64,000 nucleotides of DNA from Thermoanaerobaculia bacterium (GCA_041574955.1 JBFGNS010000001.1:28740-92739); one strand, 5' to 3'; positions 9,299 through 35,383 are shown, counted from the stretch's first letter. Notes: generated by a model from the sequence alone, not told the origin. A program made the numbers and translations.

Positions 9299-10290
9299 CC
9301 CGGCCGGTGGGCCGCGGCGCGCGCCTGCGGCCCGTCGGCCGCGAGGAGGTGCAGGGTCACGGTGTCGCCGCACGGTACCAGCGGCCCGAAGCCGCCGGCC
9401 GGGGCGCAGTCGAGCGGCTCGCCGGCGGCGCTCCAGCAGCTGTGGATCTCGAGCAGGCGGTCGGGGCGGGCGGCGTCGCAGTAGAGCCGCACCGTGCGCG
9501 GGTAGAGGGCCGCGAGGCGCGACCGCGCGACCGTGTCACCGGCCCAGCCGTCGACGGCAGCGGTGGCGTCGGCGATCCTGGCGGCGAGCTCCAGCCCGGT
9601 GGCGAAGTAGCGGAGCGCACCCTCGTCGCCGGGCTCTGTGAAGCAGGTGCCGTGCTTCTGCCACTCGTGGTTGAGCAGCTCGCAGACGGCGCCTTCGGCG
9701 ACGCCGTCGGGAGCGCTGCCGGCCGCCGGATCGGGCCACTCGGCGGCCAGCCGGGCGCGCAGCTCCGCCGGCCAGCGGGCCACCGCCGCGGGGTCGAGAG
9801 GCAGCGCCTCGCCGCAGCACTGGGGGAAGCCGGCGGTGTAGTTGGGCCACAGGCCGTGGATCGCCAGCCGCGCGGGCGTGCCGCGGCCGCAGCGAGCCTC
9901 GCCGCGGTGGGTGAGGGTGGTGTCGTAGCCGTCGGACAGTCCGGCGCAGAAGGTCGGCAGCCAGTGCTGCGAGAGCAGCAGGTAGTCGTAGTCGGCGGCA
10001 CCCGTCTTGGCGGCGCAGGCGGCGTCGCCCTCGTCGAAGCAGACGACCGCTGGCGGCCGGGCGACCGGCGAATCGGCGCGCACGCCGCAGATGTCGACGC
10101 AGCCGGAACCGTCGGCGCGCCAGCCGCCGGGATGGTCGAAGCCGGAGTCCGGCGGGCGCTCGGCCCGTTCTGCGGCGCCACAGGCGAGCGCGGTCGCGGT
10201 GAGTGCCGCGAGAGCCGCCAGACGGCTGCGCCGCCGCCGGTCGCTGCTGCGCGCCTCGGCGCCTGGCTGCGGTGGGCGGCTCAGCGCCGT
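9295..10290 (-). CDS. secreted ribonuclease T2 family lipoprotein (start codon unresolved)
   Basis: CAS I HGLWP and CAS II HEWQKHGTC motifs; signal LAALAALTATALAC; no ATG/GTG/TTG in frame before the signal peptide. Confidence 0.7.
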   Translation of the reverse strand, partial: TALSRPPQPGAEARSSDRRRRSRLAALAALTATALACGAAERAERPPDSGFDHPGGWRADGSGCVDICGVRADSPVARPPAVVCFDEGDAACAAKTGAADYDYLLLSQHWLPTFCAGLSDGYDTTLTHRGEARCGRGTPARLAIHGLWPNYTAGFPQCCGEALPLDPAAVARWPAELRARLAAEWPDPAAGSAPDGVAEGAVCELLNHEWQKHGTCFTEPGDEGALRYFATGLELAARIADATAAVDGWAGDTVARSRLAALYPRTVRLYCDAARPDRLLEIHSCWSAAGEPLDCAPAGGFGPLVPCGDTVTLHLLAADGPQARAAAHRPG

Positions 10291-11468
10291 CGCCGCCCCT
10301 GCTCGACGATCTGGCGCAGCCTGGCCGCGGGGTCGGCCACCTTGGCGAGGAAGATCATCGCCGCGATCACCGGCGGCTTGAAGCTCGCCTGGTGGTAGGT
10401 GTGCGGGATGTAGCGCTCGAACACCGGCCGGCTGACCTCGCCGCGCTCGCAGCTCAGGCCGCTGATGTCGGCCGGCAGGCAGTGCTGGTAGAGCGCCGAG
10501 CCTTCGCGGGTCAGGCCCATCCGGTCGTCGTCGCACTCCCAGGCCACGTGCTCGGCGTTCTCGGCCAGGCAGTCACGCTCGAGCTGCTTCAAACCGTCGC
10601 GGTCGCCGGCGTGCAGCAGGTCCCGCCGCCGCTCCATCACCGCCAGCGACGCCCACGACTTGGGGTAGACGACGTCGGCATCGCGGAAGGCGTCGTCCAT
10701 CGAGTCGACCACCTCGAAGCTGCCGCCGCTGGCGGCGGCGTTGCGCCCGGCCAGCTCGACCACGTCGGGCAGCAGGTCGTAGCCCGGAGGGTGGGCGAGG
10801 GTGACCCGCATCCCGAAGCGGCTCATCAGGGCGATCACCCCCTGCGGCACCGACAGCGGCTTGCCGTAGCTCGGCGAGTAGGCCCAGCTCATCGCGATCT
10901 TCTTGCCGCGCAGCTCGTCGACGCCGCCGAAGTAGTCGGCCAGCTTGGCCAGATCGGAGAGGCTCTGGGTCGGGTGGTCGAGGTCCGACTGCAGGTTGAC
11001 CACCACCGGTCGCTGGTGGAGCAGGCCCTGGCGGTGGCAGTCGGCCACGGCGTCCCGCACCTGGCGCTGATACCGGTCGCCCTCGCCGAGATAGAGGTCG
11101 TCCCGGATGCCGATCACCTCGGCCATGAAGCTGAGCATCGCCGCGGTCTCGCGCACCGTCTCGCCGTGGGCGATCTGGGACTTCTCCTCGTCGAGGCTCT
11201 CGACCGCCAGACCGAGAGCGTCGGCGGCCGAGGCGTAGCTGAAGCGGGTGCGGGTCGACTGATCGCGGAAGATCGAGATCGCCAGACCGCTGTCGAAGAT
11301 CCGGTAGGAGACGCCTTCGCGGTGTAGCCGGTCGAGGATGCCGGCGACCAGCAGGGTGGCGCGGACGTCGTCTTCGGTCTTCTCCCAGGTGAGCAGGAAG
11401 TCCTGCTCCAGCATCGCGGGGCGCAGCCGCTCCAGGGCCTCGATGTCGTGCAGCAGGGTGTCGGTCAT
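10281..11468 (-). CDS. ygeW: knotted carbamoyltransferase YgeW family (putative oxamate carbamoyltransferase)
   Basis: STRTR carbamoyl-phosphate motif, HPTQ, SMDDAF; start MTDTLLHDIEALERL; length about 395 aa as in YgeW. Confidence 0.8.
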   Translation of the reverse strand: MTDTLLHDIEALERLRPAMLEQDFLLTWEKTEDDVRATLLVAGILDRLHREGVSYRIFDSGLAISIFRDQSTRTRFSYASAADALGLAVESLDEEKSQIAHGETVRETAAMLSFMAEVIGIRDDLYLGEGDRYQRQVRDAVADCHRQGLLHQRPVVVNLQSDLDHPTQSLSDLAKLADYFGGVDELRGKKIAMSWAYSPSYGKPLSVPQGVIALMSRFGMRVTLAHPPGYDLLPDVVELAGRNAAASGGSFEVVDSMDDAFRDADVVYPKSWASLAVMERRRDLLHAGDRDGLKQLERDCLAENAEHVAWECDDDRMGLTREGSALYQHCLPADISGLSCERGEVSRPVFERYIPHTYHQASFKPPVIAAMIFLAKVADPAARLRQIVEQGRRRR

Positions 11469-11562
11469 GGCGGCTTGGGGCGGGCTCGCGGCGGGCGGTC
11501 GGAGGGAGCGGCGGGTAGCGTACGACAGGCCGGAGCCGCCGGCAACCTGCGGCTCCGACGGT

Positions 11563-12519
11563 ATGATTGCCGCCGTGCAAGCGCCGCTGATCGTCATCGC
11601 CGTGGGGGGCAACTCGCTCATCCGGGACGCCCAGCACATGACGGTGCTGGACCAGTACATCGCTGCCGGCGAGACCGCCGAGCACATCGCCGACATCGTC
11701 GAGGCCGGCTTCAGGGTGCTGATCACCCACGGCAACGGCCCGCAGGTGGGCTTCATCCTGCTGCGCTCGGAGCTGGCCAAGGACAAGGTGCACCAGGTGC
11801 CGCTGGAGAGCTGCGTCGCCGACACCCAGGGAGCGATCGGCTACCAGATCGAGCAGACGCTGTCGAACGAGCTCGTCCAGCGCGGCGTCCGCCGGCAGAT
11901 CTCGGTGGTGGTGACGCAGGTGGTGGTCGACCGCGCCGATCCGGCGCTCGGCAAGCCGTCCAAGCCGATAGGCCCGTTCCTGTCGGAGGAGGAGGCCGGC
12001 CGGCGGCGGGACAAGGACGGCTGGGAGATGGTCGAGGACGCCGGCCGCGGCTGGCGGAGGGTGGTGGCCTCGCCCCGGCCGCTCGAAGTGATCGAGCTGG
12101 AAGTGATCCGCCTGCTGCTCGACGCCGGCGTCATCGTCATCGCCGCCGGCGGCGGCGGCATCCCCGTGGTGCGCGACGAGGCCGGCCGGTTGACCGGCGT
12201 GCCGGCGGTGGTCGACAAAGACGCCGCCTCGTGCCTGCTGGCCAAGAACCTGGGGGCCGAGATCCTGATGATCTCGACCGGTGTCGAAAAGGTGGCGCTC
12301 AACTACCGCAAGCCCGACCAGACCTGGATCGACCGCATGACGGTCGCCGAGGCCCGCCGCCACCTCGAGGACGGGCAGTTCGCGGCCGGCAGCATGCGGC
12401 CGAAGATCGAGGCGGCGATCGACTTTCTGGAGAGCGGCGGCGCCAAGGTCATCATCACCGAGCCTCACGTGCTGGAGGACGCGCTGTTCGGCCGCACCGG
12501 CACGCTGGTGGTGCCGTGA
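11563..12519 (+). CDS. arcC: carbamate kinase
   Basis: LIVIAVGGNSL ... VLITHGNGPQVGF signature; divergent from ygeW. Confidence 0.85.
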   Translation: MIAAVQAPLIVIAVGGNSLIRDAQHMTVLDQYIAAGETAEHIADIVEAGFRVLITHGNGPQVGFILLRSELAKDKVHQVPLESCVADTQGAIGYQIEQTLSNELVQRGVRRQISVVVTQVVVDRADPALGKPSKPIGPFLSEEEAGRRRDKDGWEMVEDAGRGWRRVVASPRPLEVIELEVIRLLLDAGVIVIAAGGGGIPVVRDEAGRLTGVPAVVDKDAASCLLAKNLGAEILMISTGVEKVALNYRKPDQTWIDRMTVAEARRHLEDGQFAAGSMRPKIEAAIDFLESGGAKVIITEPHVLEDALFGRTGTLVVP

Positions 12520-13787
12520 GCGTGGCTTCGGCCGGCGGCGACGCACTGCCGCCGGTCGGCGAGCCGGTGGCCGAGCTGGACTCTCTGACGGCGCGAGCGG
12601 CGCCGTTCCTGATGAAGCTGGCACGTGCGCTGCACACCTACGGCATGCCGTCGCACCGCCTGGAGCTGGCGCTGTCGCAGGTCTCGGCCGAGCTCGGTGT
12701 TGCCGCCCACTACCTGGTGACGCCGACCTCGATCTTCGCCTCGATCGGTTCGGCGCCGTCGGCCCGGACGTTCATCGAGCGGCTCGAGCCGGGCCAGATC
12801 GACCTCGGCAAGCAGACCGAGCTGCACGGGCTGATCGGGGCGGTCTGCCGCCGGCGGCTGACCCTGGAGGAGGCGGCGGCGGCGGTCGACGCGCTGGTCG
12901 AGCGCCCGCCCGTGCAGGGCTGGCCGGCGGTGGTGGCCAGCTTCGGGCTGGCGTCGACGGGGGCGGCGGTGTTTTTCGGCGGCGGTCGCAGCGAGCTGAT
13001 CGCGGCCGGCGCTATCGGTCTGGCCATCGGTCTGCTGGTCCGGGCGGCGGGCGGCTCGCGGCGGCTGGCGATGGTGATGCCCGGCGTGGCGGGGGTCGCC
13101 GGCGTGTTGATCGCGGCGGCTGTACAGGCGGCGCTCGGGCCGATGTTCCCGTTCATCCCCACGCTGGCCGGTCTGATCATCCTGATCCCGGGTCTCAACC
13201 TGACCATCGCGGTCAACGAGCTGGCGCACGCCCAGCTGGTGAGTGGCACCGCCCGGCTGGGCGGAGCGTTGATGGCGTTCCTGCAGATCGCCTTCGGCGT
13301 GGCGCTCGGCAAGAAGCTGGTGGGAGTGGTGGCCGGCGCCCAGCCGGTGGTCGACCCCGCGCCGCTGACGGGCTGGATGGTGCCGCTGGCGCTGGTGGTG
13401 ACGGCGGTGGCGATGACGGTGCTGTTCCGCGCCCGGCCGCGCGACCTGCCGCTCATCCTGGTGGCGGCGGGCGTTTCGTTCGGTGGCAGCCGGTTGGGCA
13501 CCGAGGCGCTCGGGCCGGAGCTCGGCGTGCTGGTGGGCGCCTGGCTGGTCGGCACGGTCGGCCACCTCGCCGGCCGCTGGCTGGATCAGCCGTCGGCGAT
13601 CGTGATCCTGCCGGGCATCCTGCTGCTGGTGCCGGGGGCGCTCGGCTTCCGCAGCCTGTCGGCGCTGATGGCGAACGACGTCGTCTCCGGCATCCAGGCC
13701 GGCTTCACCATGCTGCTGGTGGCCGCGTCGCTGGTCACCGGCCTGCTGCTGGCCAGCCTCATCGCCCGCTCGCAAGAGGCCTTCTGA
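12516..13787 (+). CDS. threonine/serine exporter family protein (ThrE; YjjP+YjjB-like fused DUF1212/DUF3815)
   Basis: GTGA overlap with carbamate kinase stop; about 10 TM segments, typical ThrE-like pattern. Confidence 0.6.
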   Translation: MSVASAGGDALPPVGEPVAELDSLTARAAPFLMKLARALHTYGMPSHRLELALSQVSAELGVAAHYLVTPTSIFASIGSAPSARTFIERLEPGQIDLGKQTELHGLIGAVCRRRLTLEEAAAAVDALVERPPVQGWPAVVASFGLASTGAAVFFGGGRSELIAAGAIGLAIGLLVRAAGGSRRLAMVMPGVAGVAGVLIAAAVQAALGPMFPFIPTLAGLIILIPGLNLTIAVNELAHAQLVSGTARLGGALMAFLQIAFGVALGKKLVGVVAGAQPVVDPAPLTGWMVPLALVVTAVAMTVLFRARPRDLPLILVAAGVSFGGSRLGTEALGPELGVLVGAWLVGTVGHLAGRWLDQPSAIVILPGILLLVPGALGFRSLSALMANDVVSGIQAGFTMLLVAASLVTGLLLASLIARSQEAF

Positions 13788-13789
13788 AG

Positions 13790-13838
13790 CGGTGACAGGA
13801 TACTTGTGCTCCAGACGGTGTTAAGTATCCTGTCACCG
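13790..13838. terminator. bidirectional intrinsic terminator hairpin between convergent thrE-like and xdhB
   Basis: GGTGACAGGATACTT-N17-AAGTATCCTGTCACC perfect 15-bp stem, locally AT-rich, followed by GCGGTTCCC tandem. Confidence 0.7.
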
Positions 13839-13856
13839 CGGTTCCCGCGGTTCCCG

Positions 13857-16196
13857 TTACCTCTCTTTGCCGGCGGCCACACGGGGAGCCAGGCGCTGCT
13901 CGAGGTCGGCGATGGCGTTGAGCACCTCCTCGGGCGTCGCCGGCGCGTTGAGGTGCGGGCTCAGCCGGTGGTCGCCGACGCTGGCCACCGCGTCCTTGAT
14001 CGCCTGGAACGCTGAGATGGCTAGCATCAGCGGCGGCTCGCCGACCGCCTTCGAGCGGTGGATGGTCGGCTCGCGGTTGCGGCCCGACGGCAGCAGCTCG
14101 ACGTGGAACTCGTCGGGCAGGTCCGAGGCGACCGGGATCTTGTAGGTCGACGGCGCGTGGGTGCCCAGCTCGCCGTCGCCGTTCCACCACAGCTCCTCCG
14201 AGGTCAGCCAGCCCATCCCCTGGATGAAGCCGCCCTCGACCTGGCCGAGGTCGATCGCCGGATTGAGCGAGCGGCCGACGTCGTGCAGGATGTCCACCCG
14301 CAGGATTCGCGTCTCGCCGGTCAGCACGTCGATGATCGCCTCGGACACCGCGGCGCCGTAGGCGAAGTAGTAGAACGGACGGCCGGTCATCGTGCGGCGG
14401 TCGTAGTGGATCTTGGGCGTGCGGTAGAAGCCGGTGGCCGATAGCGGCACGCGCGCCAGCCAGGCGCGGTGGACGAGCTCGGCGAAGGTCGCCTCGGCGT
14501 CGCCGGCCTGCACCCGGCCGTCCTCGAACCGCACCTCGTCGGCCGCCACGCCGTGCTCGCGAGCGGCGAAGTCGGCCAGCCGTCCCCGCAGCTTGTGGGC
14601 GGCGGCCAGCGCCGCCATGCCGTTGAGGTCCGATCCCGATGAGGCCGCGGTGGCCGAGGCGTTGGGCACCTTCGAGGTGTCCGATGCGGTGCAGCGGACA
14701 TCGGCGACGTCGACTCCCAGCTCGTCGGCCACCACCTGCGCCACCTTGGTGAACAGCCCCTGGCCCATCTCGGTACCGCCGTGGTTGAGCATCACCGTGC
14801 CGTCGGTGTAGAGGTGGATGAGCGCGCCGGCCTGGTTGAAGTGGGTGGCGGTGAACGAGATGCCGAACTTGACCGGGGTGAGCGCGATGCCGCGCTTGAG
14901 CAGCCGGCTGCCGGCGTTGAACCGCTCGATATCGCGCCGCCGCCGGCGGTAGTCGGAGCTCTGCTCGAGCCGCGGCACGATTTCCTCGAGCAGGTTGTCC
15001 TCGACCTTCATCCGGTAGGGGGTCTCGTCGCGCTCGCCGACGCCGTAGAAGTTGGCGCGCCGCACGTCCAGCGGATCGATCCCCAGGTGACGGGCGATCT
15101 CGTCGACCACCGTTTCGATCGCCAGCATGCCCTGTGGGCCGCCGAAGCCGCGAAAGGCCGTGTTGGAAACCGTGTGGGTCTTGCACCGGTGCGAGACGAT
15201 CGATACGTTCTCGAGGTAGTAGGCGTTGTCGGAGTGGAAGATGGCGCGGTCGTTGACCGGGCCCGAGAGATCGGCCGACATGCCGCAGTTCGACGCCAGC
15301 TCGAGCTCGAGGCCGGCGATCACGCCGCGCTCGTCGAAGCCGACGTGGTAGTCGACGCGGAAGCCGTGCCGCTTGCCGGTCATGATCATGTCGGCATCGC
15401 GGTCCAGGCGCAGCTTGACCGGCCGGCCGATGCGGTCGGCGAGCAGCGCGGCGATGGCGGCGAACAGCGCCGGCTGCGTTTCCTTGCCGCCGAAGCCACC
15501 GCCCATCCGGCGGCACTCCACCACCACGTCGTTGGCGGTGCGGGCGAGCGCGTGGGCCACCACCATCTGCACCTCGCCGGGGTGCTGGGTCGAGCTGTAG
15601 ACCAGCATCTGGCCGTCCTCGCGCGGCAACGCGAAGGCGATCTGCCCCTCGAGGTAGAACTGGTCCTGCCCACCGATCCGCAGCCGGCCGCGCAGCCGGC
15701 GGGCGGCGCCGGCGATCGCGCCCCCGGCGTCGCCGCGCACGAGCCGCACGCTCGGCAGCACAAACGACTGCCGCGCCAGGGCGGTGTCGATGTCGAGGAT
15801 GGCCGGCAGGTCGTCGTACTCGATGACCGCTCGCCGCGCCGCTCGCCGCGCCAGATCGACACCGGTGGCGGCGACCGCGAACACCGACTGGCCGACGTAC
15901 TGCACCAGCCGGTCGGCAAAGATGGGGTCGTCTTTGAGCATGCCGCCGATGTCGTTGGCGCCGGGGATGTCGGTGGCGGTCATCACCTCGACCACGCCGG
16001 GTGAGCGTCGCACCGGCTCGAGGTCGAGCGAGCGGATGCGAGCGTGCGGCCGCGCGCTGGTGCCGACGGCGGCGTGCAGGGTGCCGGCGGGTTCGGGCAG
16101 GTCGTCGGCGTAGTCGGCGCCGCCGCTGACGTGCAGGTGGGCGCTCTCGTGGGGCAGCGGCGTCCCGACGCGGCCCGGTCTGTCGTCTCGGCTCAC
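13857..16196 (-). CDS. xdhB: xanthine dehydrogenase molybdopterin-binding subunit
   Basis: Aldehyde oxidase/xanthine DH a/b hammerhead and MoCo-binding pattern (GGGFGGK); ATGA overlap with upstream xdhA. Confidence 0.85.
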   Translation of the reverse strand: MSRDDRPGRVGTPLPHESAHLHVSGGADYADDLPEPAGTLHAAVGTSARPHARIRSLDLEPVRRSPGVVEVMTATDIPGANDIGGMLKDDPIFADRLVQYVGQSVFAVAATGVDLARRAARRAVIEYDDLPAILDIDTALARQSFVLPSVRLVRGDAGGAIAGAARRLRGRLRIGGQDQFYLEGQIAFALPREDGQMLVYSSTQHPGEVQMVVAHALARTANDVVVECRRMGGGFGGKETQPALFAAIAALLADRIGRPVKLRLDRDADMIMTGKRHGFRVDYHVGFDERGVIAGLELELASNCGMSADLSGPVNDRAIFHSDNAYYLENVSIVSHRCKTHTVSNTAFRGFGGPQGMLAIETVVDEIARHLGIDPLDVRRANFYGVGERDETPYRMKVEDNLLEEIVPRLEQSSDYRRRRRDIERFNAGSRLLKRGIALTPVKFGISFTATHFNQAGALIHLYTDGTVMLNHGGTEMGQGLFTKVAQVVADELGVDVADVRCTASDTSKVPNASATAASSGSDLNGMAALAAAHKLRGRLADFAAREHGVAADEVRFEDGRVQAGDAEATFAELVHRAWLARVPLSATGFYRTPKIHYDRRTMTGRPFYYFAYGAAVSEAIIDVLTGETRILRVDILHDVGRSLNPAIDLGQVEGGFIQGMGWLTSEELWWNGDGELGTHAPSTYKIPVASDLPDEFHVELLPSGRNREPTIHRSKAVGEPPLMLAISAFQAIKDAVASVGDHRLSPHLNAPATPEEVLNAIADLEQRLAPRVAAGKER

Positions 16197-17755: not shown

Positions 17756-17845
17756 GGTGTCGCCTCCTCCGGACAGCACGCCAGGGAGTCGAGAAGGCTG
17801 TCGGGAGTATAGCGCCAGCCGGCGCGCTCCGGCTGCCCGCCTCGA

Positions 17846-19153
17846 CTAGCCGCCGGTGCGGACGGTGTAGAAGACGATCAGCAACGCGCCCAGCAGGTAC
17901 ATCAGCGGGTGGATGTCGCGGAAGCGGCCGCGCAGCAGCTTGATCGCCACCCAGGAGACGATGCCGAAGCTGATGCCGTTGGCGATCGAGTAGGTGAACG
18001 GCATGGTCGCGGCGGTCAGGAAGGCCGGCACCGCCTCGTCGATCCGCGACCAGTCGATCTCGCGCGCGCCCTGCATCATCAGCGCACCGACCACGATCAG
18101 CGCCGGCGCGGTGGCGAAGGCGGGCACCGCGGTGAACAGCGGCGTCAGGAACAGCGACAGCAGGAACAGCAATCCGACCACCACCGCGGTCAGGCCGGTG
18201 CGACCGCCCTCCTCGACGCCGGTGGCCGACTCGACGTAGCTGGTGACCGTGCTGGTGCCCACCGCCGCCCCGACCATGGTGCCGACGGCGTCGGCCGCGA
18301 ACGCCCGCTCGGAGCGCGGCAGCTCGCCCCGCTTGTCGACGAAGCCGGCCAGCCGGCCGACGCCGATCAGCGTACCGGCGGTGTCGAAGATGTCGACGAA
18401 CAGGAACGCCAGCACCACCAGCAGCAGCTTGCCGGTCATCAGGCCGGAGAAGTCGAGAGCGAAGAGCGTCTCCTCGGGCAGCCCCGGCCAGCTGACGAGC
18501 TGGACGGGGGGCGCGATGATCCCGGCTCCCCAGGCGATGCCGGTAACGCCCAGGATGCCGATAAGGATCGCACCCCTTACGCGCGCCGACATCAGCACCG
18601 CCATCACCACCAGCCCGGCGAGCGCCAGCAGGGCGGTCGCGGCATGCACGTCGCCCAGGGTCACCAGCGTCGCCGGGTGGTCGACCACCAGGCCGGCGTT
18701 CTGGAAGCCGATGATCGCCAGGAACAGGCCGATGCCGCTCATGGTGGCGATCTTGATCGACTGCGGGATGGCGCGCAGCAGGGCGGTGCGCACCCCGGTC
18801 AGCGCCAGCACCAGGAACAGCGCCCCCTCGACGAAGACAGCCGCCAGCGCCACCTGCCAGGAGATCCCCATGCCGAGCACGACGCCGAAGGTGAAGTAGG
18901 CGTTCAGACCCATGCCGGGCGCCAGCGCGAACGGGTAGTTGGCCAGCAGGCCCATCGCCAGGGTGGCGGCGGCCGAGGCCAGAGCGGTGGCGACCGCCAC
19001 GTCGCTCGCCGGCAGGCCGGCCTGCGACAGGATCTGCGGGTTGACGAACAGGATGTAGGACATGGTGAGGAAGGTCACCACGCCCGCCCGCACCTCGGTG
19101 GCCACCGAGCTGCCCTGGGCCTCGATCCGGAACCACCGTTCCAGCACGCTCAC
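17846..19153 (-). CDS. pbuG: NCS2 family purine permease (AzgA/PbuG-like adenine/guanine/hypoxanthine permease)
   Basis: VLERWFRIEAQGSSVATEVRAGVVTFLTMSYILFVNPQIL typical AzgA N-terminus; GTG start 19153 (or 19147) inferred. Confidence 0.75.
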   Translation of the reverse strand: MSVLERWFRIEAQGSSVATEVRAGVVTFLTMSYILFVNPQILSQAGLPASDVAVATALASAAATLAMGLLANYPFALAPGMGLNAYFTFGVVLGMGISWQVALAAVFVEGALFLVLALTGVRTALLRAIPQSIKIATMSGIGLFLAIIGFQNAGLVVDHPATLVTLGDVHAATALLALAGLVVMAVLMSARVRGAILIGILGVTGIAWGAGIIAPPVQLVSWPGLPEETLFALDFSGLMTGKLLLVVLAFLFVDIFDTAGTLIGVGRLAGFVDKRGELPRSERAFAADAVGTMVGAAVGTSTVTSYVESATGVEEGGRTGLTAVVVGLLFLLSLFLTPLFTAVPAFATAPALIVVGALMMQGAREIDWSRIDEAVPAFLTAATMPFTYSIANGISFGIVSWVAIKLLRGRFRDIHPLMYLLGALLIVFYTVRTGG

Positions 19154-25212: not shown

Positions 25213-27837
<2,625 letters not shown>

Positions 27838-28180: not shown

Positions 28181-29704
28181 ATGTCCGAAGCAGGCTCGTC
28201 GACCACCGGTCACGTGCAGCCGATCTACGCGATCGAAGACCGCCCGCCGCCGGGTCGCGCCTTCGTTCTCGGCGCGCAGCACGTGCTGACGATGTTCGGC
28301 GCGACGGTCAGCGTGCCGCTGCTGTTCGGTCCGGTGATGGGGATGAGCGCGGCCGAGACCGCGCGGCTGATCTCGGCGGTGATGCTGTGCTCCGGACTGG
28401 CGACGCTGGTCCAGACCACCATCGGCTCGCGGCTGCCGATCGTGCAGGGCGTGTCGTTCTCGTTCCTGGCCGCCTTCTTCCTGATCATCAGCGAGGTCGG
28501 CCAGGAGGCGGCGGCGGCGGGAGTGGCGGTCGGGCCGCTGGCGATGCAGTACATCGCCGGCGCGATCATCGCCGGCTCGCTGATCGAGATCCTGATCGGC
28601 TTCAGCGGGCTGGTCGGGGTGCTGCGCAAGGCGCTGTCGCCGGTGGTCATCGGACCGGTCATCATGCTGATCGGCCTTGCGCTGTTCCAGCACGGCGCGC
28701 CCAAGGCCGGCACCCACTGGCCGATCTCGAGCCTGACCATCGTGCTGATCGTCGTCTTCTCGCTGGTGCTGGCCCGCAAGCACAGGTTCTTCAGGCTGTT
28801 CCCGATCCTCACCGCGGTGATCGCGGTGACCACGGTCTGTTTCGTGCTCACAAAGACCGGCGCGTTCCCGGCCGGGCACCCCTCCCACGTCAGCCTGGAG
28901 GCGGTCGAGCAGTCGAGCTGGGTGCGGCTGTCGCCCGGCGAGCTGTTCTTCCCGTGGGGCGCGCCGAAGTTCAAGCTGGGGTTCTTCCTCGCCATCCTGG
29001 CCGCCTACCTGGCGTCGATGATCGAGTCGATCGGCGACTATCACGCCGCTTCGTACATGGCGGGCGGCGGCGACCCGACGCCCCGCCAGCTCAACCGGGG
29101 GATCGGCTCGGAGGGCATCGGCTGCCTGCTGACCGGCGTGTTCGGCGGCTTCGCCTCGACCTCCTACTCCGAGAACATCGGCCTGATCGGCCTCACCAAG
29201 GTGGGCTCGCGCTGGGTGGTCCAGGTGGGAGCTCTGCTGCTGGTTGCGCTCGGTATCTTCGGCAAGTTCGGCGGCTTCGCCGCCGCCATCCCCGGCCCGG
29301 TGGTGGGCGGGCTGTACTGCGCGCTGTTCGGCCTGATCGCGGCGATCGGGGTCCAGCAGCTGGCCAAGGCGGACCTGTCGAGCGACCGCAACCTGTTCAT
29401 CGCCGGCTTCTCGCTGTTCATGGGCCTGTCGGTGCCCGCCTACTTCGCCGCCCGCGCCAGCGCCGACCTGCTGGGACCTGGGCAGACCCTGGCGATGTAC
29501 ACGCCGAGCGCCGAGAGCCTGCTGGCGAGCCTGCCGGCGACCCTCGGCGGGGTGCTCACCTCGATCGGCTCGACCGGCATGGCGGTGGCCGCGGTCTTCG
29601 GCATCCTGCTCGACAACCTGATACCGGGCAGCCCGGAGGAGCGCGGTCTGGGGCCCAGCACGCTGGTGCCCGAGGGCGGCGACATCGGGGTGGGGGGGGA
29701 GTGA
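28181..29704 (+). CDS. NCS2 nucleobase:cation symporter (xanthine/uracil/urate permease)
   Basis: QHVLTMFGATVSVPLL signature; GGGAGG SD before ATG 28181. Confidence 0.8.
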   Translation: MSEAGSSTTGHVQPIYAIEDRPPPGRAFVLGAQHVLTMFGATVSVPLLFGPVMGMSAAETARLISAVMLCSGLATLVQTTIGSRLPIVQGVSFSFLAAFFLIISEVGQEAAAAGVAVGPLAMQYIAGAIIAGSLIEILIGFSGLVGVLRKALSPVVIGPVIMLIGLALFQHGAPKAGTHWPISSLTIVLIVVFSLVLARKHRFFRLFPILTAVIAVTTVCFVLTKTGAFPAGHPSHVSLEAVEQSSWVRLSPGELFFPWGAPKFKLGFFLAILAAYLASMIESIGDYHAASYMAGGGDPTPRQLNRGIGSEGIGCLLTGVFGGFASTSYSENIGLIGLTKVGSRWVVQVGALLLVALGIFGKFGGFAAAIPGPVVGGLYCALFGLIAAIGVQQLAKADLSSDRNLFIAGFSLFMGLSVPAYFAARASADLLGPGQTLAMYTPSAESLLASLPATLGGVLTSIGSTGMAVAAVFGILLDNLIPGSPEERGLGPSTLVPEGGDIGVGGE

Positions 29705-29772: not shown

Positions 29773-30903
29773 ATGTTCACTGAATCGAGATCCAAGTTCC
29801 TGGCGACGGCTCTCTGCCTGGGCGCCGTCGGCGGCCTGCTGTTGATCGGCTGTGGCGGTGGCGAGGAGCCGGCCGCGCCGGCGGGCGGCGAGCAGGAGGC
29901 GGGTGGCGTTGCGGTCAAGGCGGCGTTCGTCTACGTCAGCCCGGTGGGCGACGCCGGCTGGACGCTGGCGCACGACAAGGGGCGCCAGGCCATCGACGAG
30001 CTGCCGTACGTCGAGACGGCCTACACCGAGGCGGTGCCCGAGGGCGCCGAGGCCGAACGCACCATCCGGCAGTACGTACGCGGCGGCTACAACCTGATCT
30101 TCACCACCAGCTTCGGCTACATGGATCCGACGATCAACGTGGCGGCGTCGAGCCCGGACGTGGTCTTCATGCACTGCTCCGGGTTCAAGACGGCGGACAA
30201 CGTCGGGACCTACTTCGGGCGGATGTACCAGCCGCGCTACCTGTCGGGCATGGTGGCCGGGATGATGAGCAAGTCCGGCAAGCTCGGCTACGTCGCGGCC
30301 CACCCGATCCCGGAGGTGATCCGCGGCATCAACGCCTTCGCGCTCGGCGCGCGGTCGGTGAACCCCAAGACCAAGGTGCACGTGGTCTGGACCCAGACCT
30401 GGTACGACCCGGCGAAGGAGCGCGAGGCGGCGGAGAGCCTGCTCGACATCGGTGCCGACGTCATCGCGCAGCACCAGGACACGCCGGCTCCGCAGCAGGC
30501 GGCGGAGAAGCGCGGCAACTACAGCATCGGCTACAACTCCGACATGACGAGCTTTGCCCCCGCCGCCCACCTGACGGCGCCGGTCTGGAACTGGGCGGTG
30601 GTCTATAAGCGGGTGGCCGAGGAGGTGCACAACGGCACCTGGACCTCGTCTCAGTACTGGGGCGGCATGGAGGACGGCGTGGTGGGTCTGGCGCCATACA
30701 GCGACCTGGTGCCGCAAGAGGTGCGCGATGCGGTCGAGGCCAAGAAGGCCGAGATCGTGGCCGGCTCGTGGGACGTCTTCACCGGCCCGATCAACAACCA
30801 GGCCGGCGAGCCCTGGGTGGCGGCCGGCGAGCGTATGTCGGACCAGGACATGCTGGGCATGACCGCCTTCGTCGAGGGCGTGGTGGGCACCATCCCGCAG
30901 TAG
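29773..30903 (+). CDS. BMP family (Med/PnrA-like) ABC transporter substrate-binding lipoprotein, nucleoside-binding
   Basis: Lipobox LLLIGC; BMP fold pattern (AAFVYVSPVGDAGW...); AAAGGAG SD. Confidence 0.7.
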   Translation: MFTESRSKFLATALCLGAVGGLLLIGCGGGEEPAAPAGGEQEAGGVAVKAAFVYVSPVGDAGWTLAHDKGRQAIDELPYVETAYTEAVPEGAEAERTIRQYVRGGYNLIFTTSFGYMDPTINVAASSPDVVFMHCSGFKTADNVGTYFGRMYQPRYLSGMVAGMMSKSGKLGYVAAHPIPEVIRGINAFALGARSVNPKTKVHVVWTQTWYDPAKEREAAESLLDIGADVIAQHQDTPAPQQAAEKRGNYSIGYNSDMTSFAPAAHLTAPVWNWAVVYKRVAEEVHNGTWTSSQYWGGMEDGVVGLAPYSDLVPQEVRDAVEAKKAEIVAGSWDVFTGPINNQAGEPWVAAGERMSDQDMLGMTAFVEGVVGTIPQ

Positions 30904-30955
30904 ATCCACCGGCGACGGTCCGGCGGCGGACGCCGCCGGACCGGGTTCGAGGCCC

Positions 30956-32518
30956 ATGACCGAGCCATCTGCAGAAAGCGCCGAGCCACGGACCGCAAGC
31001 GAGGTCGCGGTGGCGCTGCGCGGCATCACCAAGCGGTTCCCCGGGGTGATCGCCAACGACAGCGTAGACCTCGAGCTGCGGCGCGGCGAGATCCACACGC
31101 TGCTGGGTGAGAACGGCGCCGGCAAGAGCACGCTGATGAACGTGCTGACCGGCATCTACCGCCCCGAGGCCGGCACCATCGAGGTATGGGGCGAGCCGGT
31201 GCAGCTGAGATCCCCCAAGGACGCGATCGACCTGGGGATCGGCATGGTGCACCAGAGCTTCAAGCTGGTGGCGACCCACACCGTGACCGAGAACATCATT
31301 CTCGGGCTCGGGCGGGGCCTCGCGCCGGTCGATCTCGACAAGGCGGAGAAGAGGGTCGGCGAGCTGTCCCGGCGCTACGGGCTCGAGGTCGACCCGGCGG
31401 CGAGCGTCTGGCAGCTGTCGATCGGCGAGCAGCAGCGGGTCGAGATTCTCAAGATCCTCTACCGCGGAGCCCGCATCCTGCTGCTCGACGAGCCGACGGC
31501 GGTGCTCACGCCGCAGGAGGCCGACGAGCTGTTCGTCACCCTGCGGGCGATGCGCGAGAAGGGCCACTCGATCGTCTTTATCTCCCACAAGCTGGACGAG
31601 GTGATGGCCATCTCGGACCGCGTGACGGTGCTGCGCGGCGGCAGGAACGTGGGCACGGTAGAGGCCGCGGGTACCAGCCCGCAGCAGCTGTCAAACCTCA
31701 TGGTGGGCCGCGAGATCCGCTTCACCAGGTTCCCGCGGCGCGACGAGCTGGGGGAGCTGGTGCTCGAGGTCGAGGGAGTCAGCGCCACCAACAGCCGCGG
31801 CCTGCCGGCGCTCACCGACGTCAGCTTCACTGTCAAGGCGGGCGAGATCCTGGGCTTCGCCGGCGTCGCCGGCAACGGCCAGGAGGAGCTGGCGCAGGTC
31901 GTCACCGGCCTGATCCAACCCGACCGCGGGGCGGTGCGGGTGAACCAGCGGCCGATGCAGGGGGCCAGCGCTCGCAAGTTCATCGACGCGGGAGTCAGCT
32001 ACGTGCCGGCCGACCGCCACGGGGTCGCCACGGTCGGCGACATGTCGCTGAGCAACAACAGCGTGCTGCGCCGCTACCGGGAGGCCGAGTTCGGCAGCGG
32101 CCCGTTCCTCAACTTCACCGCCGCCACGATCTACGCGCGCGAGCTCATCAAGCAGTACGACATCAAGACGCCCGGCGCGCGCACCCCGGTCCGTCAGCTG
32201 TCCGGCGGCAACCTGCAGAAGGTGATCCTGGCGCGCGAGATGACCACCCGCCACCGGCTGCTGGTGGTGATGTCGGCGACCCGCGGGCTGGACGTCGGCG
32301 CCACCGAGTTCGTGCGGCAGGCGCTCAACGAGCACCGTCACCAGGGCGGCGCCATCGTGCTCATCTCGGAGGACCTGGAGGAGCTGCTGAGCCTGTCAGA
32401 CCGCATCGCGGTGCTGTTCCACGGCCGGATCATGGGCATCGTGGACGCCGCCGACGCGGAGATCGAGACCCTGGGGCTGATGATGGCGGGCCGCCCGCTG
32501 TCCGAGGTGGGCGCCTGA
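30956..32518 (+). CDS. ABC transporter ATP-binding protein, duplicated ATPase domains (sugar/nucleoside type)
   Basis: GENGAGKST Walker A, LLLDEPT Walker B, second half repeats; 520 aa. Confidence 0.8.
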   Translation: MTEPSAESAEPRTASEVAVALRGITKRFPGVIANDSVDLELRRGEIHTLLGENGAGKSTLMNVLTGIYRPEAGTIEVWGEPVQLRSPKDAIDLGIGMVHQSFKLVATHTVTENIILGLGRGLAPVDLDKAEKRVGELSRRYGLEVDPAASVWQLSIGEQQRVEILKILYRGARILLLDEPTAVLTPQEADELFVTLRAMREKGHSIVFISHKLDEVMAISDRVTVLRGGRNVGTVEAAGTSPQQLSNLMVGREIRFTRFPRRDELGELVLEVEGVSATNSRGLPALTDVSFTVKAGEILGFAGVAGNGQEELAQVVTGLIQPDRGAVRVNQRPMQGASARKFIDAGVSYVPADRHGVATVGDMSLSNNSVLRRYREAEFGSGPFLNFTAATIYARELIKQYDIKTPGARTPVRQLSGGNLQKVILAREMTTRHRLLVVMSATRGLDVGATEFVRQALNEHRHQGGAIVLISEDLEELLSLSDRIAVLFHGRIMGIVDAADAEIETLGLMMAGRPLSEVGA

Positions 32519-33603
32519 TGGCGGCGCGCCTCGAGCTGCGGCTCAACCCGTCGCGCAAGCTCGAGTACCTGGTGCCGGTGTTCTCGGTGCTGCTGTCGCT
32601 GGTGGTCTGTGCCGGGCTGCTGCTGGCCACCGGCACCAATCCGCTGGTCGCCTACGGCGCCATGCTGCGCGAAGCGTTCGGCTCGTCGTACGGCTTCGCC
32701 GAGGTGCTGGTCAAGGCGACGCCGCTCATCCTGTGCGGGTTGGGGGTGATGCTGGCGTTCAAGATGCTGTTCTGGAACATCGGCGCCGAAGGCCAGCTCC
32801 ACATGGGCGCCTGGGGCGCCACCGCGGTGGTGATGACCGGCTGGCAGGGACCGGGCTGGTTGATGATCCCGGCCATGATGGTGGCGGCGATGGCCGCCGG
32901 CGCGCTATGGGCGCTGATCCCGGCGTATCTCAAGGTGCGGCTGAACACCAACGAGATCATCACCACTCTGCTGCTCAACTACGTCGCCATCCTGTGGGTG
33001 GCGCACTTCATCTACGGTCCGTGGAAGGATCCGGTGAGCTTCGGCTTTCCGATGACCCAGCAGTTCCCGCCCGGCGCCCAGCTGCCCAGGCTGGCAGACA
33101 GCCGCGTCCATCTCGGCTTCCTGGTGGCGCTGGCGCTGGTGGTGGTCGTCTACTTCGTGCAGGAGAAGAGCCGCTGGGGCTTCGAGATCGCGGTCACCGG
33201 AGGCAACCCGCGCGCCGCCGAGTACGCCGGCATGAACGCCGCGCGCAACGTGCTGGTGGTGATGGCGATCAGCGGCGGGCTGGCCGGGCTGGCCGGCATG
33301 GTGGAGGTGAGCGCCATCCAGCTCAAGCTGCTCAAGGACATCTCGCCCCACGCCGCGCCGTACGGCTACACGGCGATCATCATCGCCTGGCTGGCGCGCC
33401 GCAACCCTTGGGGGGTGCTGCTGGTGTCGATCCTGATGGGGGCGCTGTACGTCGGCGGCGAGACGGTGCAGATCACCATGAAGCTGCCGGTGAACATCGT
33501 CCTGATCATCCAGGCGCTGATCCTGTTCTTCGTCCTGGGAGGCGACATCCTGTCGCGTTACCGGCTGGTCTTCGACCGCCAGGAGGCTGTCGGTGGAGGG
33601 TGA
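32518..33603 (+). CDS. ABC transporter permease
   Basis: ATGA overlap with ATPase stop; multi-TM branched-chain/nucleoside permease-like. Confidence 0.7.
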   Translation: MAARLELRLNPSRKLEYLVPVFSVLLSLVVCAGLLLATGTNPLVAYGAMLREAFGSSYGFAEVLVKATPLILCGLGVMLAFKMLFWNIGAEGQLHMGAWGATAVVMTGWQGPGWLMIPAMMVAAMAAGALWALIPAYLKVRLNTNEIITTLLLNYVAILWVAHFIYGPWKDPVSFGFPMTQQFPPGAQLPRLADSRVHLGFLVALALVVVVYFVQEKSRWGFEIAVTGGNPRAAEYAGMNAARNVLVVMAISGGLAGLAGMVEVSAIQLKLLKDISPHAAPYGYTAIIIAWLARRNPWGVLLVSILMGALYVGGETVQITMKLPVNIVLIIQALILFFVLGGDILSRYRLVFDRQEAVGGG

Positions 33604-34531
33604 TCTCGGTGTCCTGATCGTGGCGATCCTGCAGGCGGCGGTGCGCTCGGGCACGCCGATCCTGTTCGTCTGTATCGGCGAGATCTTTGCCGAGCGGGCG
33701 GGAGTGCTCAACGTCGGCCTCGAGGGTCTGATGCTGGTCGGCGCCATCGCCGGCTTCACCGCCGGCTTTACCGCCGGCAACCCGGTGGTCGGGGTGCTGG
33801 TGGCCGCCGTGGCCGGCGCCGTGTTCTCGTTGATCCACGCCTTCGTCACCATCACCCTGCGCGCCGACCAGATCGTCAGCGGGCTCACCCTGACCATCCT
33901 GGGGACCGGTATCAGCGGCTTCTTCGGCAAGCCGATGATCGGCCAGGTCGGGCCCGGGTTCGACAAGCTGCCGGTGCCGGGGCTGTCGCAGATCCCGGTG
34001 CTGGGCCAGGTGCTGTTCGAGCAGGACGCCATGGTCTACCTGTCGTACCTGCTGGTGCCGGTCGCCTGGTGGGTGCTGTACAAGAGCCACCTGGGGCTGG
34101 CCATCCGCTCGGTGGGGGAGAGCCCGGCCACCGCCGACTCGCTGGGCGTGCCGGTGGTGCGCATCCGCTACGGCTGCGTGCTGTTCGGCGGCGCCATGGC
34201 CGGCATCGGTGGCGCCTACCTGTCGCTGGCCTACACCACGATGTGGATCGAGCAGATGAGCGGCGGGCGCGGCTGGATCACGCTGGCGCTGGTCATCTTC
34301 GCCGGCTGGGACCCTGCCAAGGCCATTCTGGGCGCCTACCTGTTCGGCGGCGCCGACGCCCTGCAGCTACGCATCCAGGCGGTCGGGCTGGGCATCCCGA
34401 CCTACTTCCTGATGATGCTGCCGTACGTTCTGACGATCGTCATCCTGGTGCTGGCTTCGCGCGCCACGCTGCGCCAGCGGCTCGGCGCCCCCGCGGCGCT
34501 CGGGCTGCCCTGGGCGAGAGAGGAGCGTTAG
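33593..34531 (+). CDS. ABC transporter permease (second subunit)
   Basis: GTG start overlapping previous gene; multi-TM. Confidence 0.65.
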   Translation: MEGDLGVLIVAILQAAVRSGTPILFVCIGEIFAERAGVLNVGLEGLMLVGAIAGFTAGFTAGNPVVGVLVAAVAGAVFSLIHAFVTITLRADQIVSGLTLTILGTGISGFFGKPMIGQVGPGFDKLPVPGLSQIPVLGQVLFEQDAMVYLSYLLVPVAWWVLYKSHLGLAIRSVGESPATADSLGVPVVRIRYGCVLFGGAMAGIGGAYLSLAYTTMWIEQMSGGRGWITLALVIFAGWDPAKAILGAYLFGGADALQLRIQAVGLGIPTYFLMMLPYVLTIVILVLASRATLRQRLGAPAALGLPWAREER

Positions 34532-34582
34532 CGCGGCCAGGCCGCCCGCAACACCCCACAACTTCAACGGGAGACCCCACAG

Positions 34583-35383
34583 ATGAAACGACCCGCGAAC
34601 CGATCGAGCCTTCTGATCACCCTGCTGTTGGCGTTGGTGTGGGCGGGCGCGCTGCCCGCCGGCGCCGCCATCTGGAGCAACACCGAGCTGCACATCCAGG
34701 TGGGCACGCTCGACACGCCCCAGTTCCTGGTCGACCTGTTCGGCGATCTGCCCGACAAGAGCACCACGATCTTCACCCTGCAGCACGCCAGCGGCTGGAA
34801 GTACGGCGACAACTTCTTCTTCTTCGACGTCATCTCGGCCGAGGGCGGCGGTTTCAACGACTACGACACCTACGGCGAGTGGTACTCCTACTTCAGCTTC
34901 CGCAAGATGGCGGGCAAGGAGGAGATGAAGGGTGCGCTCAAGGACGTGCGCTTCATTGCCGGCTTCAACTGGGCGCCGGACGCCGACGTGCGCAAGTACC
35001 TGCCAGGCATCGGGCTGTCCTGGAACGCGCCGGGCTTCGCTTTCCTCAACACCGACTTCACCCTGTACATCGACGACAGCGTGGGCGTCGCCGGCGGCGG
35101 CTCGGCGCCGAGCGAGGACGACTCGTTCATGATCGACGTCAACTGGGCGCGGCCGTTCGGCGGCGGCAAGTGGTCCATCGAGGGCCATGCCGAGTACATC
35201 GGCTCGCGCACCGACGAGTTCGGCGGCAACGTCTCGTCCTGGATCCTGGCCCAGCCGCAGCTGCGCTATTACGTCAACCCCAGCGTCGCGATCGGCATCG
35301 AGTACCAGTACTGGCAGAACAAGCTGGGAGACGATCGCACCGACGAGAGCGCCGTACAGGCGTTGTTGGTGTGGAAGTTCTAG
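34583..35383 (+). CDS. outer-membrane beta-barrel, Tsx-like nucleoside channel
   Basis: Signal peptide, aromatic-rich beta-strand pattern, C-terminal ...WKF; loose resemblance to Tsx (WKYGDNFFFFDV vs KDWFDFYGYADA). Confidence 0.45.
   Translation: MKRPANRSSLLITLLLALVWAGALPAGAAIWSNTELHIQVGTLDTPQFLVDLFGDLPDKSTTIFTLQHASGWKYGDNFFFFDVISAEGGGFNDYDTYGEWYSYFSFRKMAGKEEMKGALKDVRFIAGFNWAPDADVRKYLPGIGLSWNAPGFAFLNTDFTLYIDDSVGVAGGGSAPSEDDSFMIDVNWARPFGGGKWSIEGHAEYIGSRTDEFGGNVSSWILAQPQLRYYVNPSVAIGIEYQYWQNKLGDDRTDESAVQALLVWKF

Follow-up and report, generated by a model that had tools for sequence, protein, structure and literature searches.

The locus described here raises the question of whether a free-living bacterium rich in guanine plus cytosine (GC) carries the reductive route of urate degradation and, if so, how this route could run when two of its established genes are missing from the cluster. 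Specifically, the analysis concerns the region from 9.3 to 35.4 kb of a 64-kb window (the whole stretch of 64,000 nucleotides that was analysed, GCA_041574955.1 JBFGNS010000001.1:28740-92739) from a bacterium of the Thermoanaerobaculia, a member of the Acidobacteriota of a soil or sediment type, whose nearest species-level relative is a Thermoanaerobaculia metagenome-assembled genome (MAG) of the ‘Ca. Multivoradales’. We read this region, with a probability of about 0.68 and on the strength of sequence comparison, as a cluster for purine scavenging and reductive urate degradation, in which the 2,8-dioxopurine pathway would be present in a rearranged variant free of the NAD(P)H module, with the missing steps encoded by unlinked genes. 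On this reading, it is not a different pathway from the known 2,8-dioxopurine one.

The reductive urate pathway was worked out in 2025, when the pathway of the E. coli and Clostridium clusters was reconstituted in two preprints, and it has been described as a trait of anaerobes from the gut and from other host-associated settings (10.1101/2025.04.24.650524; 10.1101/2025.05.19.654654). In this pathway, urate is converted to 2,8-dioxopurine by XdhD-YgfM or XdhAC, YgfK dearomatises 2,8-dioxopurine, SsnA opens the ring to give ureidomethyl-hydantoin, and HyuA yields 2,3-diureidopropionate from the latter; YgeW then phosphorolyses one ureido group, YqeA forms ATP from the resulting carbamoyl phosphate, YgeY decarbamoylates the remainder to 2,3-diaminopropionate, and YgeX deaminates this product to pyruvate (10.1101/2025.04.24.650524; 10.1101/2025.05.19.654654).

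Genes were mapped in the window by third-position GC framing; at approximately 72% GC the raw lists of open reading frames (ORFs) are crowded with spurious frames. To refine the start codons, ribosome-binding sites and profile coordinates were used together with the genes called on L083, a nearly identical public contig; annotation relied on Pfam and NCBIfam scans of the window proteins, with curated cut-offs for equivalog models. The framing and the scans together confirmed the genes where an initial annotation of the sequence had placed them. The candidates for the core of the pathway are the following:

10281-11468, minus strand: YgeW knotted carbamoyltransferase, 395 residues (NF005538, 604 bits, cut-off 453; TIGR03316, 585 bits, cut-off 500)
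11563-12519, plus strand: carbamate kinase of the YqeA/ArcC type, divergent from ygeW (TIGR00746, 366 bits, cut-off 358; NF009007, 389 bits)
19453-21507, plus strand: short YgfK, 684 residues (TIGR03315, 377 bits, cut-off 835, E 1.7e-112, matching model positions 5-406 of 1012 only)
21576-23096, plus strand: long YgeY-type M20 amidohydrolase, 506 residues (NF009555, 181 bits, cut-off 321)
23987-25210, minus strand: SsnA-like amidohydrolase, 407 residues (NF005540, 286 bits, cut-off 444; next family 112 bits)
25213-27837, minus strand: fused 2x[2Fe-2S] and molybdopterin hydroxylase, 874 residues (TIGR03311, 912 bits, cut-off 830)

The protein encoded at 19453-21507, which the initial annotation had left as an unassigned Fe-S TIM-barrel protein, is by its alignments a truncated homologue of YgfK and not a full-length member of that family. 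BLAST matches residues 1-405 of E. coli YgfK at 39% identity and residues 904-963, which hold the C-terminal ferredoxin motif, at 35%; the GltD-like module for NADPH and flavin adenine dinucleotide (FAD), which takes up approximately 500 residues in E. coli YgfK, is replaced by approximately 100 mostly helical residues. What results is a flavin TIM barrel of the DPD/DHODH kind, joined by a helical linker to a 2x[4Fe-4S] domain with two CxxCxxCxxxCP motifs, after which comes a small C-terminal domain. Pfam detects only the Fer4 domains, and the AlphaFold2 model (predicted local distance difference test score, pLDDT, 82) finds its best Foldseek matches in pig DPD and DHODH. Judging from these domains, the short YgfK can act like the reductase half of YgfK, and it would be a 2,8-dioxopurine reductase driven by an external electron donor. 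It belongs to a large family, as the best 120 database matches are all approximately 670-740 residues long and come from Acidobacteriota, Thermoleophilia, and ‘Deltaproteobacteria’. A near-identical copy lies on GCA_041608635.1 (P0001), in a contig that begins just upstream of the gene and adds no context.

The fused iron-sulfur (FeS) molybdenum enzyme has no FAD domain or subunit, and no YgfM FAD subunit is encoded in the 64 kb. The model that it passes is named ‘selenium-dependent xanthine dehydrogenase’, and its homologues (43-80% identity) adjoin YgfK or SsnA genes in 16 of 49 related loci; it is a candidate for the reductase that converts urate to 2,8-dioxopurine, akin to the DOPDH enzyme. 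The SsnA-like protein, 36% identical to E. coli SsnA, is the putative ring-opening hydrolase for dihydro-2,8-dioxopurine. The long YgeY shows full-length homology to E. coli YgeY (32% identity) with invariant metal ligands (HxD, D, EE, H) and, in the alignment, several conserved insertions; its orthologues, 59-76% identical, adjoin the short YgfK in 10 other loci, and a phmmer search of the PDB returned a spurious designed-protein match only. The predicted role of the long YgeY is that of the decarbamoylase giving 2,3-diaminopropionate.

As regards energy conservation, YgeW shares 60% identity with its E. coli counterpart and carries the STRTR71, HPTQ165, and HCLP329 motifs at identical positions; the raw ORF from 10281 is too long (514 residues), the true protein having 395. 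By this homology, YgeW would act on 2,3-diureidopropionate and free carbamoyl phosphate from one of its ureido groups by phosphorolysis; from this product the carbamate kinase, 45% identical to E. coli YqeA, would form ATP, so that the ATP-yielding step proposed by the initial annotation is plausible. Among the family calls that this annotation had drawn from motifs, those of YgeW, carbamate kinase, XdhA, and XdhB pass in profile searches, whereas the SsnA-like and YgeY-like proteins find these families as their best matches below the cut-offs.

Around these genes lie others for the conversion and transport of purines:

12516-13787, plus strand: membrane transporter of the ThrE family, whose gene shares its first 4 nucleotides with the end of the carbamate kinase gene (Pfam ThrE 3e-51, ThrE_2 3.6e-16)
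13857-16196, minus strand: XdhB, molybdopterin subunit of a Rhodobacter/Pseudomonas-type xanthine dehydrogenase (TIGR02965, 1260 bits, cut-off 850)
16193-17779, minus strand: XdhA, 2Fe-2S and FAD subunit of xanthine dehydrogenase (TIGR02963, 647 bits, cut-off 467)
17846-19153, minus strand: NCS2 permease, AzgA/GhxQ-like for purine bases, at the head of the permease-xdhA-xdhB operon (Pfam Xan_ur_permease 2e-49)
23386-23982, minus strand: CDA-fold zinc deaminase, 198 residues, last gene of the operon of the molybdenum enzyme and ssnA (Pfam dCMP_cyt_deam_1 2.9e-7)
28181-29704, plus strand: NCS2 permease of the xanthine/urate type, at the head of the uptake operon (Pfam Xan_ur_permease 1.7e-87; TIGR03173, 252 bits, cut-off 414)
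29773-34531, plus strand: BMP-family (PnrA-like) ATP-binding cassette (ABC) importer, with the binding protein at 29773-30903, a double ATPase at 31010-32518, and permeases at 32518-33603 and 33620-34531 (Pfam Bmp 4e-67, ABC_tran, BPD_transp_2 twice)
34583-35383, plus strand: beta-barrel of the outer membrane, whose gene ends the uptake operon; the protein carries a signal peptide and has Phe at its C terminus

XdhAB is predicted to oxidise hypoxanthine and xanthine to urate. The CDA-fold deaminase holds the HGE and PCSLC zinc-binding motifs and has no NCBIfam match; its top PDB sequence matches are the B. subtilis guanine deaminase structures 1WKQ and 1TIY (E 8e-8, approximately 100 residues), followed by NE0047 and plant guanosine deaminase. 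It is most likely a guanine (or guanosine) deaminase that would supply xanthine, a feeder comparable to guaD in the E. coli cluster and not, as initially proposed, a stand-in for YgeX or HyuA. The first NCS2 permease is 38% identical to E. coli GhxQ, the second is 29% identical to both UacT and XanQ (its start being taken from the gene call of L083), and the BMP importer would take up nucleosides. The outer-membrane barrel itself has no Pfam match, and single-sequence and profile searches of the PDB were empty; 7 of 25 homologues match PF03502 (Channel_Tsx), and when the AlphaFold model (pLDDT 86.5) is compared with the PDB in Foldseek, E. coli Tsx (1TLW) ranks first (E 2.3e-8, template modelling scores 0.63/0.67). 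The barrel is probably a divergent Tsx-like channel, as the initial annotation had it, with the link to Tsx made only by the fold search. As for ThrE, its cargo can only be guessed at, small polar amino acids such as diaminopropionate being one such guess.

These genes form five transcription units followed by the uptake operon. On the minus strand, ygeW precedes an RNase T2 gene; on the plus strand, the carbamate kinase gene precedes that of ThrE with the 4-nucleotide overlap; the NCS2 permease, xdhA, and xdhB follow on the minus strand, the short ygfK and the M20 hydrolase on the plus strand, and the genes of the molybdenum enzyme, the SsnA-like amidohydrolase, and the CDA-fold deaminase, in this order, on the minus strand. 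The plus-strand uptake operon consists of the NCS2 permease, the BMP importer (binding protein, double ATPase, two permeases), and the outer-membrane barrel. The assignment to an anaerobic urate cluster of the ygeW-ssnA type with purine and nucleoside uptake genes, made by the initial annotation, holds for this arrangement, and the other genes of the window are unrelated to the urate pathway. The idea of a mobile island acquired by horizontal transfer was rejected: composition along the 64 kb is even (0.68-0.75 GC), with neither integrase nor tRNA in the window, and a scan of the whole window at the Rfam gathering thresholds gave zero matches, whether riboswitch or tRNA.

In the mechanism that we propose, nucleosides and bases would enter through the Tsx-like outer-membrane channel, the BMP importer, and the two NCS2 permeases, and would be funnelled to urate by the CDA-fold deaminase (guanine to xanthine) and by XdhAB (hypoxanthine and xanthine to urate). 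The reductive core would start with the FAD-less FeS-molybdenum enzyme, which would convert urate to 2,8-dioxopurine; the short YgfK would then reduce, and so dearomatise, this compound with an external low-potential donor such as ferredoxin, and the SsnA-like hydrolase would open the ring. After the opening of the hydantoin, YgeW would free carbamoyl phosphate from 2,3-diureidopropionate for ATP formation by the carbamate kinase, and the long YgeY would take off the second ureido group to leave 2,3-diaminopropionate. Both the hydantoin opening (HyuA) and the deamination of diaminopropionate (YgeX) would be left to unlinked genes.

Related loci show which of these genes travel together. Eighty species-level loci were collected from Acidobacteriota, Eisenbacteria, SAR324, Myxococcota, Verrucomicrobia, Planctomycetota, and Acidimicrobiia, and linkage within 10 kb of YgfK was counted in 49 of them, namely 37 loci that have a short YgfK and span 15 kb or more, and 12 that have a full-length YgfK. 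Among the 37, the TIGR03311-type molybdenum enzyme is linked in 12, an SsnA-like gene in 13, YgeW and YgeY-type genes in 11 each, and carbamate kinase in 8; a YgeX-type lyase occurs in 3, other genes of the beta family of pyridoxal phosphate (PLP) enzymes in 15, HyuA in 1, and ThrE and the CDA-fold deaminase in none. HyuA is also linked in none of the 12 full-length-YgfK loci. Loci of Acidobacteriota, Myxococcota, and SAR324 repeatedly combine the short YgfK, the TIGR03311-type enzyme, the SsnA-like protein, YgeW, the long YgeY, and carbamate kinase; in SAR324 the genes form compact operons of ssnA, short ygfK, the molybdenum enzyme gene, the carbamate kinase gene, ygeW, and long ygeY, without hyuA. 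The absence of a linked hyuA is the rule in these environmental clusters, since HyuA is linked in only 1 of the 49 loci and the SAR324 operons lack it, and it is not a special trait of the window.

The two missing genes were sought throughout the 64 kb. A tblastn search with E. coli YgeX, HyuA, YqeB, YqeC, MocA, GuaD, YgfT, YgfS, and YgeV found none of them (for HyuA at E<=1e-3), so that linked ygeX and hyuA are indeed missing, as first noticed. Closer relatives are informative on the lyase. In a 72%-related MAG (L002), a true DpaL (NF006058, 501 bits, cut-off 276) comes right after carbamate kinase, in the slot that ThrE occupies in the window, while L086, whose molybdenum enzyme is 78% identical, has an operon of DpaL, an amidohydrolase, and a ThrE that is 66% identical to that of the window. 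Since DpaL stands beside carbamate kinase in the one and beside ThrE in the other, the lineage therefore uses the diaminopropionate-lyase step, and ThrE, which the initial annotation had placed in the stead of YgeX and HyuA, shares an operon with the diaminopropionate ammonia-lyase and does not replace it. Unlinked genes are the most likely source of the HyuA and YgeX steps; the missing linked hyuA is typical of related environmental loci, whereas a cluster devoid of every lyase is less usual, and the loss of the lyase looks lineage-specific. Three candidate YgeX orthologues returned by NCBI with the L002 DpaL as query were set aside, because their source assemblies are GCA_044231025.1, GCA_044233465.1, and ERZ25039508 and not that of the window.

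The same comparison bears on gene order. The closest relatives have an operon of short ygfK, a second YgeW-like gene, and long ygeY, of which the middle gene is absent in the window, and the relative that carries L086 keeps, at L087, the operon of permease, BMP importer (in the same gene order), and Tsx-like barrel, there beside a full-length YgfK. The cluster is a mosaic, and its arrangement in the window looks like a lineage-specific reshuffle.

Several findings weigh against the reading of this region as a complete reductive pathway with unlinked end steps. In the 64-kb window there is no second cyclic amidohydrolase gene that could be HyuA, no PALP-domain gene that could be YgeX, no selenium-cofactor gene (YqeB, YqeC, SelD), no ferredoxin gene, and no regulator gene; k-mers compared among the three divergent promoters and other intergenic stretches in search of a shared operator yielded nothing but GC-rich noise. 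Moreover, the short YgfK, the SsnA-like protein (albeit an unambiguous best match), and the YgeY-like protein score below their curated cut-offs. The molybdenum enzyme, which had been called XdhD-like, stands as a fused enzyme with FeS clusters and the molybdenum cofactor (MoCo) but fails the XdhD model TIGR03313 (268 against 1102 bits) and is 28% identical to XdhD; the only published specificity residue of XdhD, E606, falls in an XdhD-only insertion that cannot be aligned to it.

The gaps in the gene set can also be taken at face value, with HyuA, YgeX, or both truly lacking, so that urate would be degraded only to ureido intermediates or to 2,3-diaminopropionate, ammonia and ATP would be gained via YgeW and carbamate kinase, and the carbon skeleton would leave through the ThrE protein co-transcribed with carbamate kinase. 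The absence of both genes from the 64 kb, the position of ThrE, which overlaps the carbamate kinase stop in the slot held by a true DpaL in L002, the single case of a HyuA linked to YgfK among 49 loci in which other pathway genes cluster tightly, and the distinct long subfamily of YgeY with its conserved insertions all fit such a truncated route. On the other hand, the occurrence of ThrE and DpaL in one operon in L086 argues that ThrE is no substitute for DpaL. A true lack of HyuA would leave the opening of the hydantoin ring to the SsnA-like protein or the long YgeY, and enzymes of the M20 and SsnA types are not known to do this. Dihydropyrimidinase-type genes are common elsewhere in genomes, and a build-up of diaminopropionate is known to be toxic; on balance, we consider a truncated route unlikely, although it retains some weight. 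Slightly more speculative is the idea that the short YgfK, the FAD-less TIGR03311-type enzyme, and the long YgeY make up a separate environmental version of the pathway, independent of pyridine nucleotides and driven by ferredoxin or another partner, with no HyuA-type hydantoinase and with an export end at ThrE. Such a version would be common outside guts, in Acidobacteriota, SAR324, Myxococcota, and Eisenbacteria; its second ring would be opened by another cluster enzyme in place of HyuA, and in this lineage diaminopropionate or a ureido-amino acid would be exported via ThrE and not made into pyruvate. We hold this doubtful.

The cluster could, more trivially, be a loose neighbourhood in which purine salvage and uptake genes (xanthine dehydrogenase, permeases, deaminase, nucleoside importer) lie by chance beside unrelated enzymes that form no single pathway. 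Gene order is highly mosaic, XdhAB, the CDA-fold deaminase, and ThrE are missing from nearly all 80 YgfK-centred loci, and neither a shared regulatory motif nor a regulator is found in the window; however, the core set (molybdenum enzyme, short YgfK, SsnA-like, YgeW, YgeY-like, and carbamate kinase) recurs as tight operons in several phyla and matches six of the eight enzymes of the experimentally reconstituted pathway, which makes a chance assembly improbable. YgeW has long been guessed to be an oxamate transcarbamylase, and the divergent ygeW and carbamate kinase genes are adjacent; the initial annotation had proposed as a possibility that YgeW acts on oxalurate and phosphate to give oxamate and carbamoyl phosphate, with ATP formed by carbamate kinase. 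No allantoinase, allantoate, or ureidoglycolate-type gene that could lead to oxalurate lies in the window, and the neighbours are those of the reductive set, with homologues of the molybdenum enzyme, YgfK, SsnA, and YgeY. The demonstrated substrate of YgeW is 2,3-diureidopropionate (10.1101/2025.04.24.650524; 10.1101/2025.05.19.654654), and the window protein keeps both 60% identity to the E. coli enzyme and its motifs, so that the oxalurate chemistry is superseded and now deserves hardly any credence. The reductive 2,8-dioxopurine pathway with unlinked end steps remains the reading that we prefer.

Other features of the region accompany the cluster, and three of them are located as follows:

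9295-10083, minus strand: protein of the RNase T2 family, encoded downstream of ygeW and in the same direction (Pfam PF00445, E 1.3e-20)
19221-19287: left arm of an inverted repeat, intergenic, upstream of the short-ygfK operon
23154-23220: right arm of the same repeat, 58 nucleotides downstream of the M20 gene

The RNase T2 protein is possibly a secreted or lipid-anchored scavenger of RNA. Its frame runs on upstream (10084-10280) through a lipobox-like or lipoprotein-like signal sequence, RRRRSRLAALAALTATALAC; no ATG, GTG, or TTG start lies between 10083 and 10536, and the extended ORF would overlap the 3' end of ygeW. The start may be non-canonical, or a frameshift or an error in the sequence may lie behind this. 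The two arms of the inverted repeat, the longest in the window (67 nucleotides, 84% complementary, its core matched twice against none expected), lie on either side of precisely the operon formed by short ygfK and long ygeY, two genes between which relatives have, as a third, one for a YgeW-like carbamoyltransferase. A metagenome scan found the repeat only from this locus, in L083 and two small metagenome contigs; a multi-copy repetitive extragenic palindrome or miniature inverted-repeat transposable element was rejected on this count, and its folding z-scores are not significant. It may be a recombination scar or a pairing element of the 5' and 3' ends of the transcript. A perfect 17-bp palindrome (GCGGTGACAGGATACTT ... 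AAGTATCCTGTCACCGC, 13789-13805 and 13823-13839) lies in the 69-nucleotide gap between the convergent ThrE and xdhB genes and is probably a bidirectional terminator. Lastly, a direct repeat of 124 nucleotides (92% identical, 35441-35564 and 36916-37039) flanks an ORF at 35566-36738 on the minus strand with a weak match to an acidobacterial VWA domain; its second copy lies inside the 3' end of an FG-GAP/ASPIC gene (36905-39322, minus strand), which suggests an insertion or duplication at the cluster edge.

Among the relatives, further arrangements were seen. On ERZ25039508 contig_43902, the molybdenum enzyme (L086 4089-7991) is called as a 1300-residue fusion with Amidohydro_3, which is either a real fusion or a frameshift, and a full-length YgfK and a short SsnA-like gene adjoin the uptake operon (L087 1-2301 and 11465-18409); close to the cluster, L087 also has SelB and a gene of the Asp/Glu/hydantoin-racemase family. 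In Verrucomicrobia (L029, L036, L039-L044, L046, and L078), the short ygfK (approximately 44% identical, match at about 10001-12000) adjoins YgfT-like genes of the GltD-type NADPH/FeS kind and lies apart from the other pathway genes, which may indicate a split YgfK with its NADPH module in trans or another function of the family. Some SAR324 and proteobacterial loci (L047 14847-18270; L011, L020, and L074) have no ygeW or ygeY near the short ygfK and carry instead a CN-hydrolase and an M20 enzyme of the allantoate-amidohydrolase type, which would be an alternative decarbamoylase pair that yields no ATP; L047 additionally has a DpaL-like lyase. A threonine-synthase-like PLP gene occurs where ygeX is expected in L010 (8971-11643), L015 (8541-11379), and L004 (14923-16293), paired in L010 and L015 with a cysteine-synthase-like PLP gene that has homologues in L086 (568-2051); neither kind is found in the window. 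In the Eisenbacteria loci L006-L009, a YqeB-like gene (XdhC/CoxI family, a selenium-cofactor marker) lies immediately upstream of the short ygfK, and the window has none.

The pathway itself is known; new are its occurrence in free-living Acidobacteriota of high GC content and in further environmental phyla, the family of truncated YgfK proteins, the long YgeY subfamily, and the consistent absence of a linked hyuA. The window and approximately 50 related loci represent a recognisable, re-engineered version of the pathway in environmental phyla, with a reductase that lacks the NADPH/FAD module. Published surveys relied on 80% coverage of full-length YgfK and high identity cut-offs against C. 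sporogenes proteins or on a TIGR03315-based InterPro signature (the latter in 10.1101/2025.05.19.654654), and for this reason they have probably missed such clusters. The variant bears on the open question of the physiological electron donor of the FAD-less molybdenum enzyme and of the reductase, and on the hydantoin-opening step where no hyuA is linked.

Compared with the E. coli uricolytic cluster (ygeW-ygeX-ygeY-hyuA-yqeA ... ygfK-ssnA-ygfM-xdhD; Li et al. 2025, Liu et al. 2025), the window has homologues of YgeW (60% identity), YqeA (45%), the catalytic N-domain of YgfK (39%), SsnA (36%), and YgeY (32%). Like that cluster, it also encodes permeases for purines, a hydroxylase in which FeS and MoCo domains are fused, a xanthine dehydrogenase apart from it, and a probable guanine deaminase. 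Unlike the E. coli cluster, it lacks HyuA, YgeX, YgfM, YqeB/YqeC/MocA, and the sigma-54 regulator YgeV within the 64 kb; its YgfK is devoid of the NADPH/FAD module of approximately 500 residues, its molybdenum enzyme is of the TIGR03311 type (28% identity to XdhD), its YgeY has several insertions, and its putative guanine deaminase has the CDA fold in place of the amidohydrolase fold of GuaD. Conversely, the BMP importer, the Tsx-like channel, ThrE, and RNase T2 are extras of the window. The barrel resembles E. coli Tsx in that Tsx is its best structural match, in closing a putative nucleoside-uptake operon, and in having some homologues that match PF03502, and it differs in its 13% identity and in the lack of a Pfam or PDB sequence match of its own.

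With DPD and PydA, the short YgfK shares a predicted fold in which a flavin mononucleotide barrel adjoins a [4Fe-4S] domain, and DHODH (class 2) is matched as well; identity is only 14-16%, however, N-terminal FeS, FAD, or NADPH domains are absent, and the short YgfK falls in a family of its own, in which the full-length relative has 2,8-dioxopurine as its substrate. The pairing of a phosphorolytic carbamoyltransferase with a neighbouring carbamate kinase to draw ATP from a ureido group recalls substrate-level phosphorylation of the arginine deiminase type, although the donor would be 2,3-diureidopropionate and not citrulline, and YgeW belongs to a knotted subfamily.

The clostridial versions were compared here by their published description. 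C. sporogenes XdhAC (DOPDH), which is without an FAD subunit, makes no use of NAD(P)H, and in C. difficile the FAD-domain-less dearomatising reductase UacX takes the place of YgfK (10.1101/2025.04.24.650524; 10.1101/2025.05.19.654654); moreover, the C. sporogenes carbamate kinase is itself unlinked to the cluster (10.1101/2025.04.24.650524). The molybdenum enzyme of the window resembles XdhAC as a single FeS-MoCo polypeptide without an FAD subunit, and the dearomatising reductase of the window resembles UacX in lacking the NAD(P)H/FAD module, whereas this reductase is a truncated YgfK and not a UacX of the PydA/PF01180 type, YgeW and carbamate kinase are present where C. difficile has UacY, and the host is an Acidobacteriota diderm of 72% GC and not a Bacillota gut anaerobe. 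In both the window and the clostridia, the combination of an FAD-less molybdenum enzyme with a module-free reductase implies an electron donor other than pyridine nucleotides, and because XdhAC works without an FAD subunit and UacX without an FAD domain, a version of the pathway free of the NAD(P)H module has a precedent, though not in this form.

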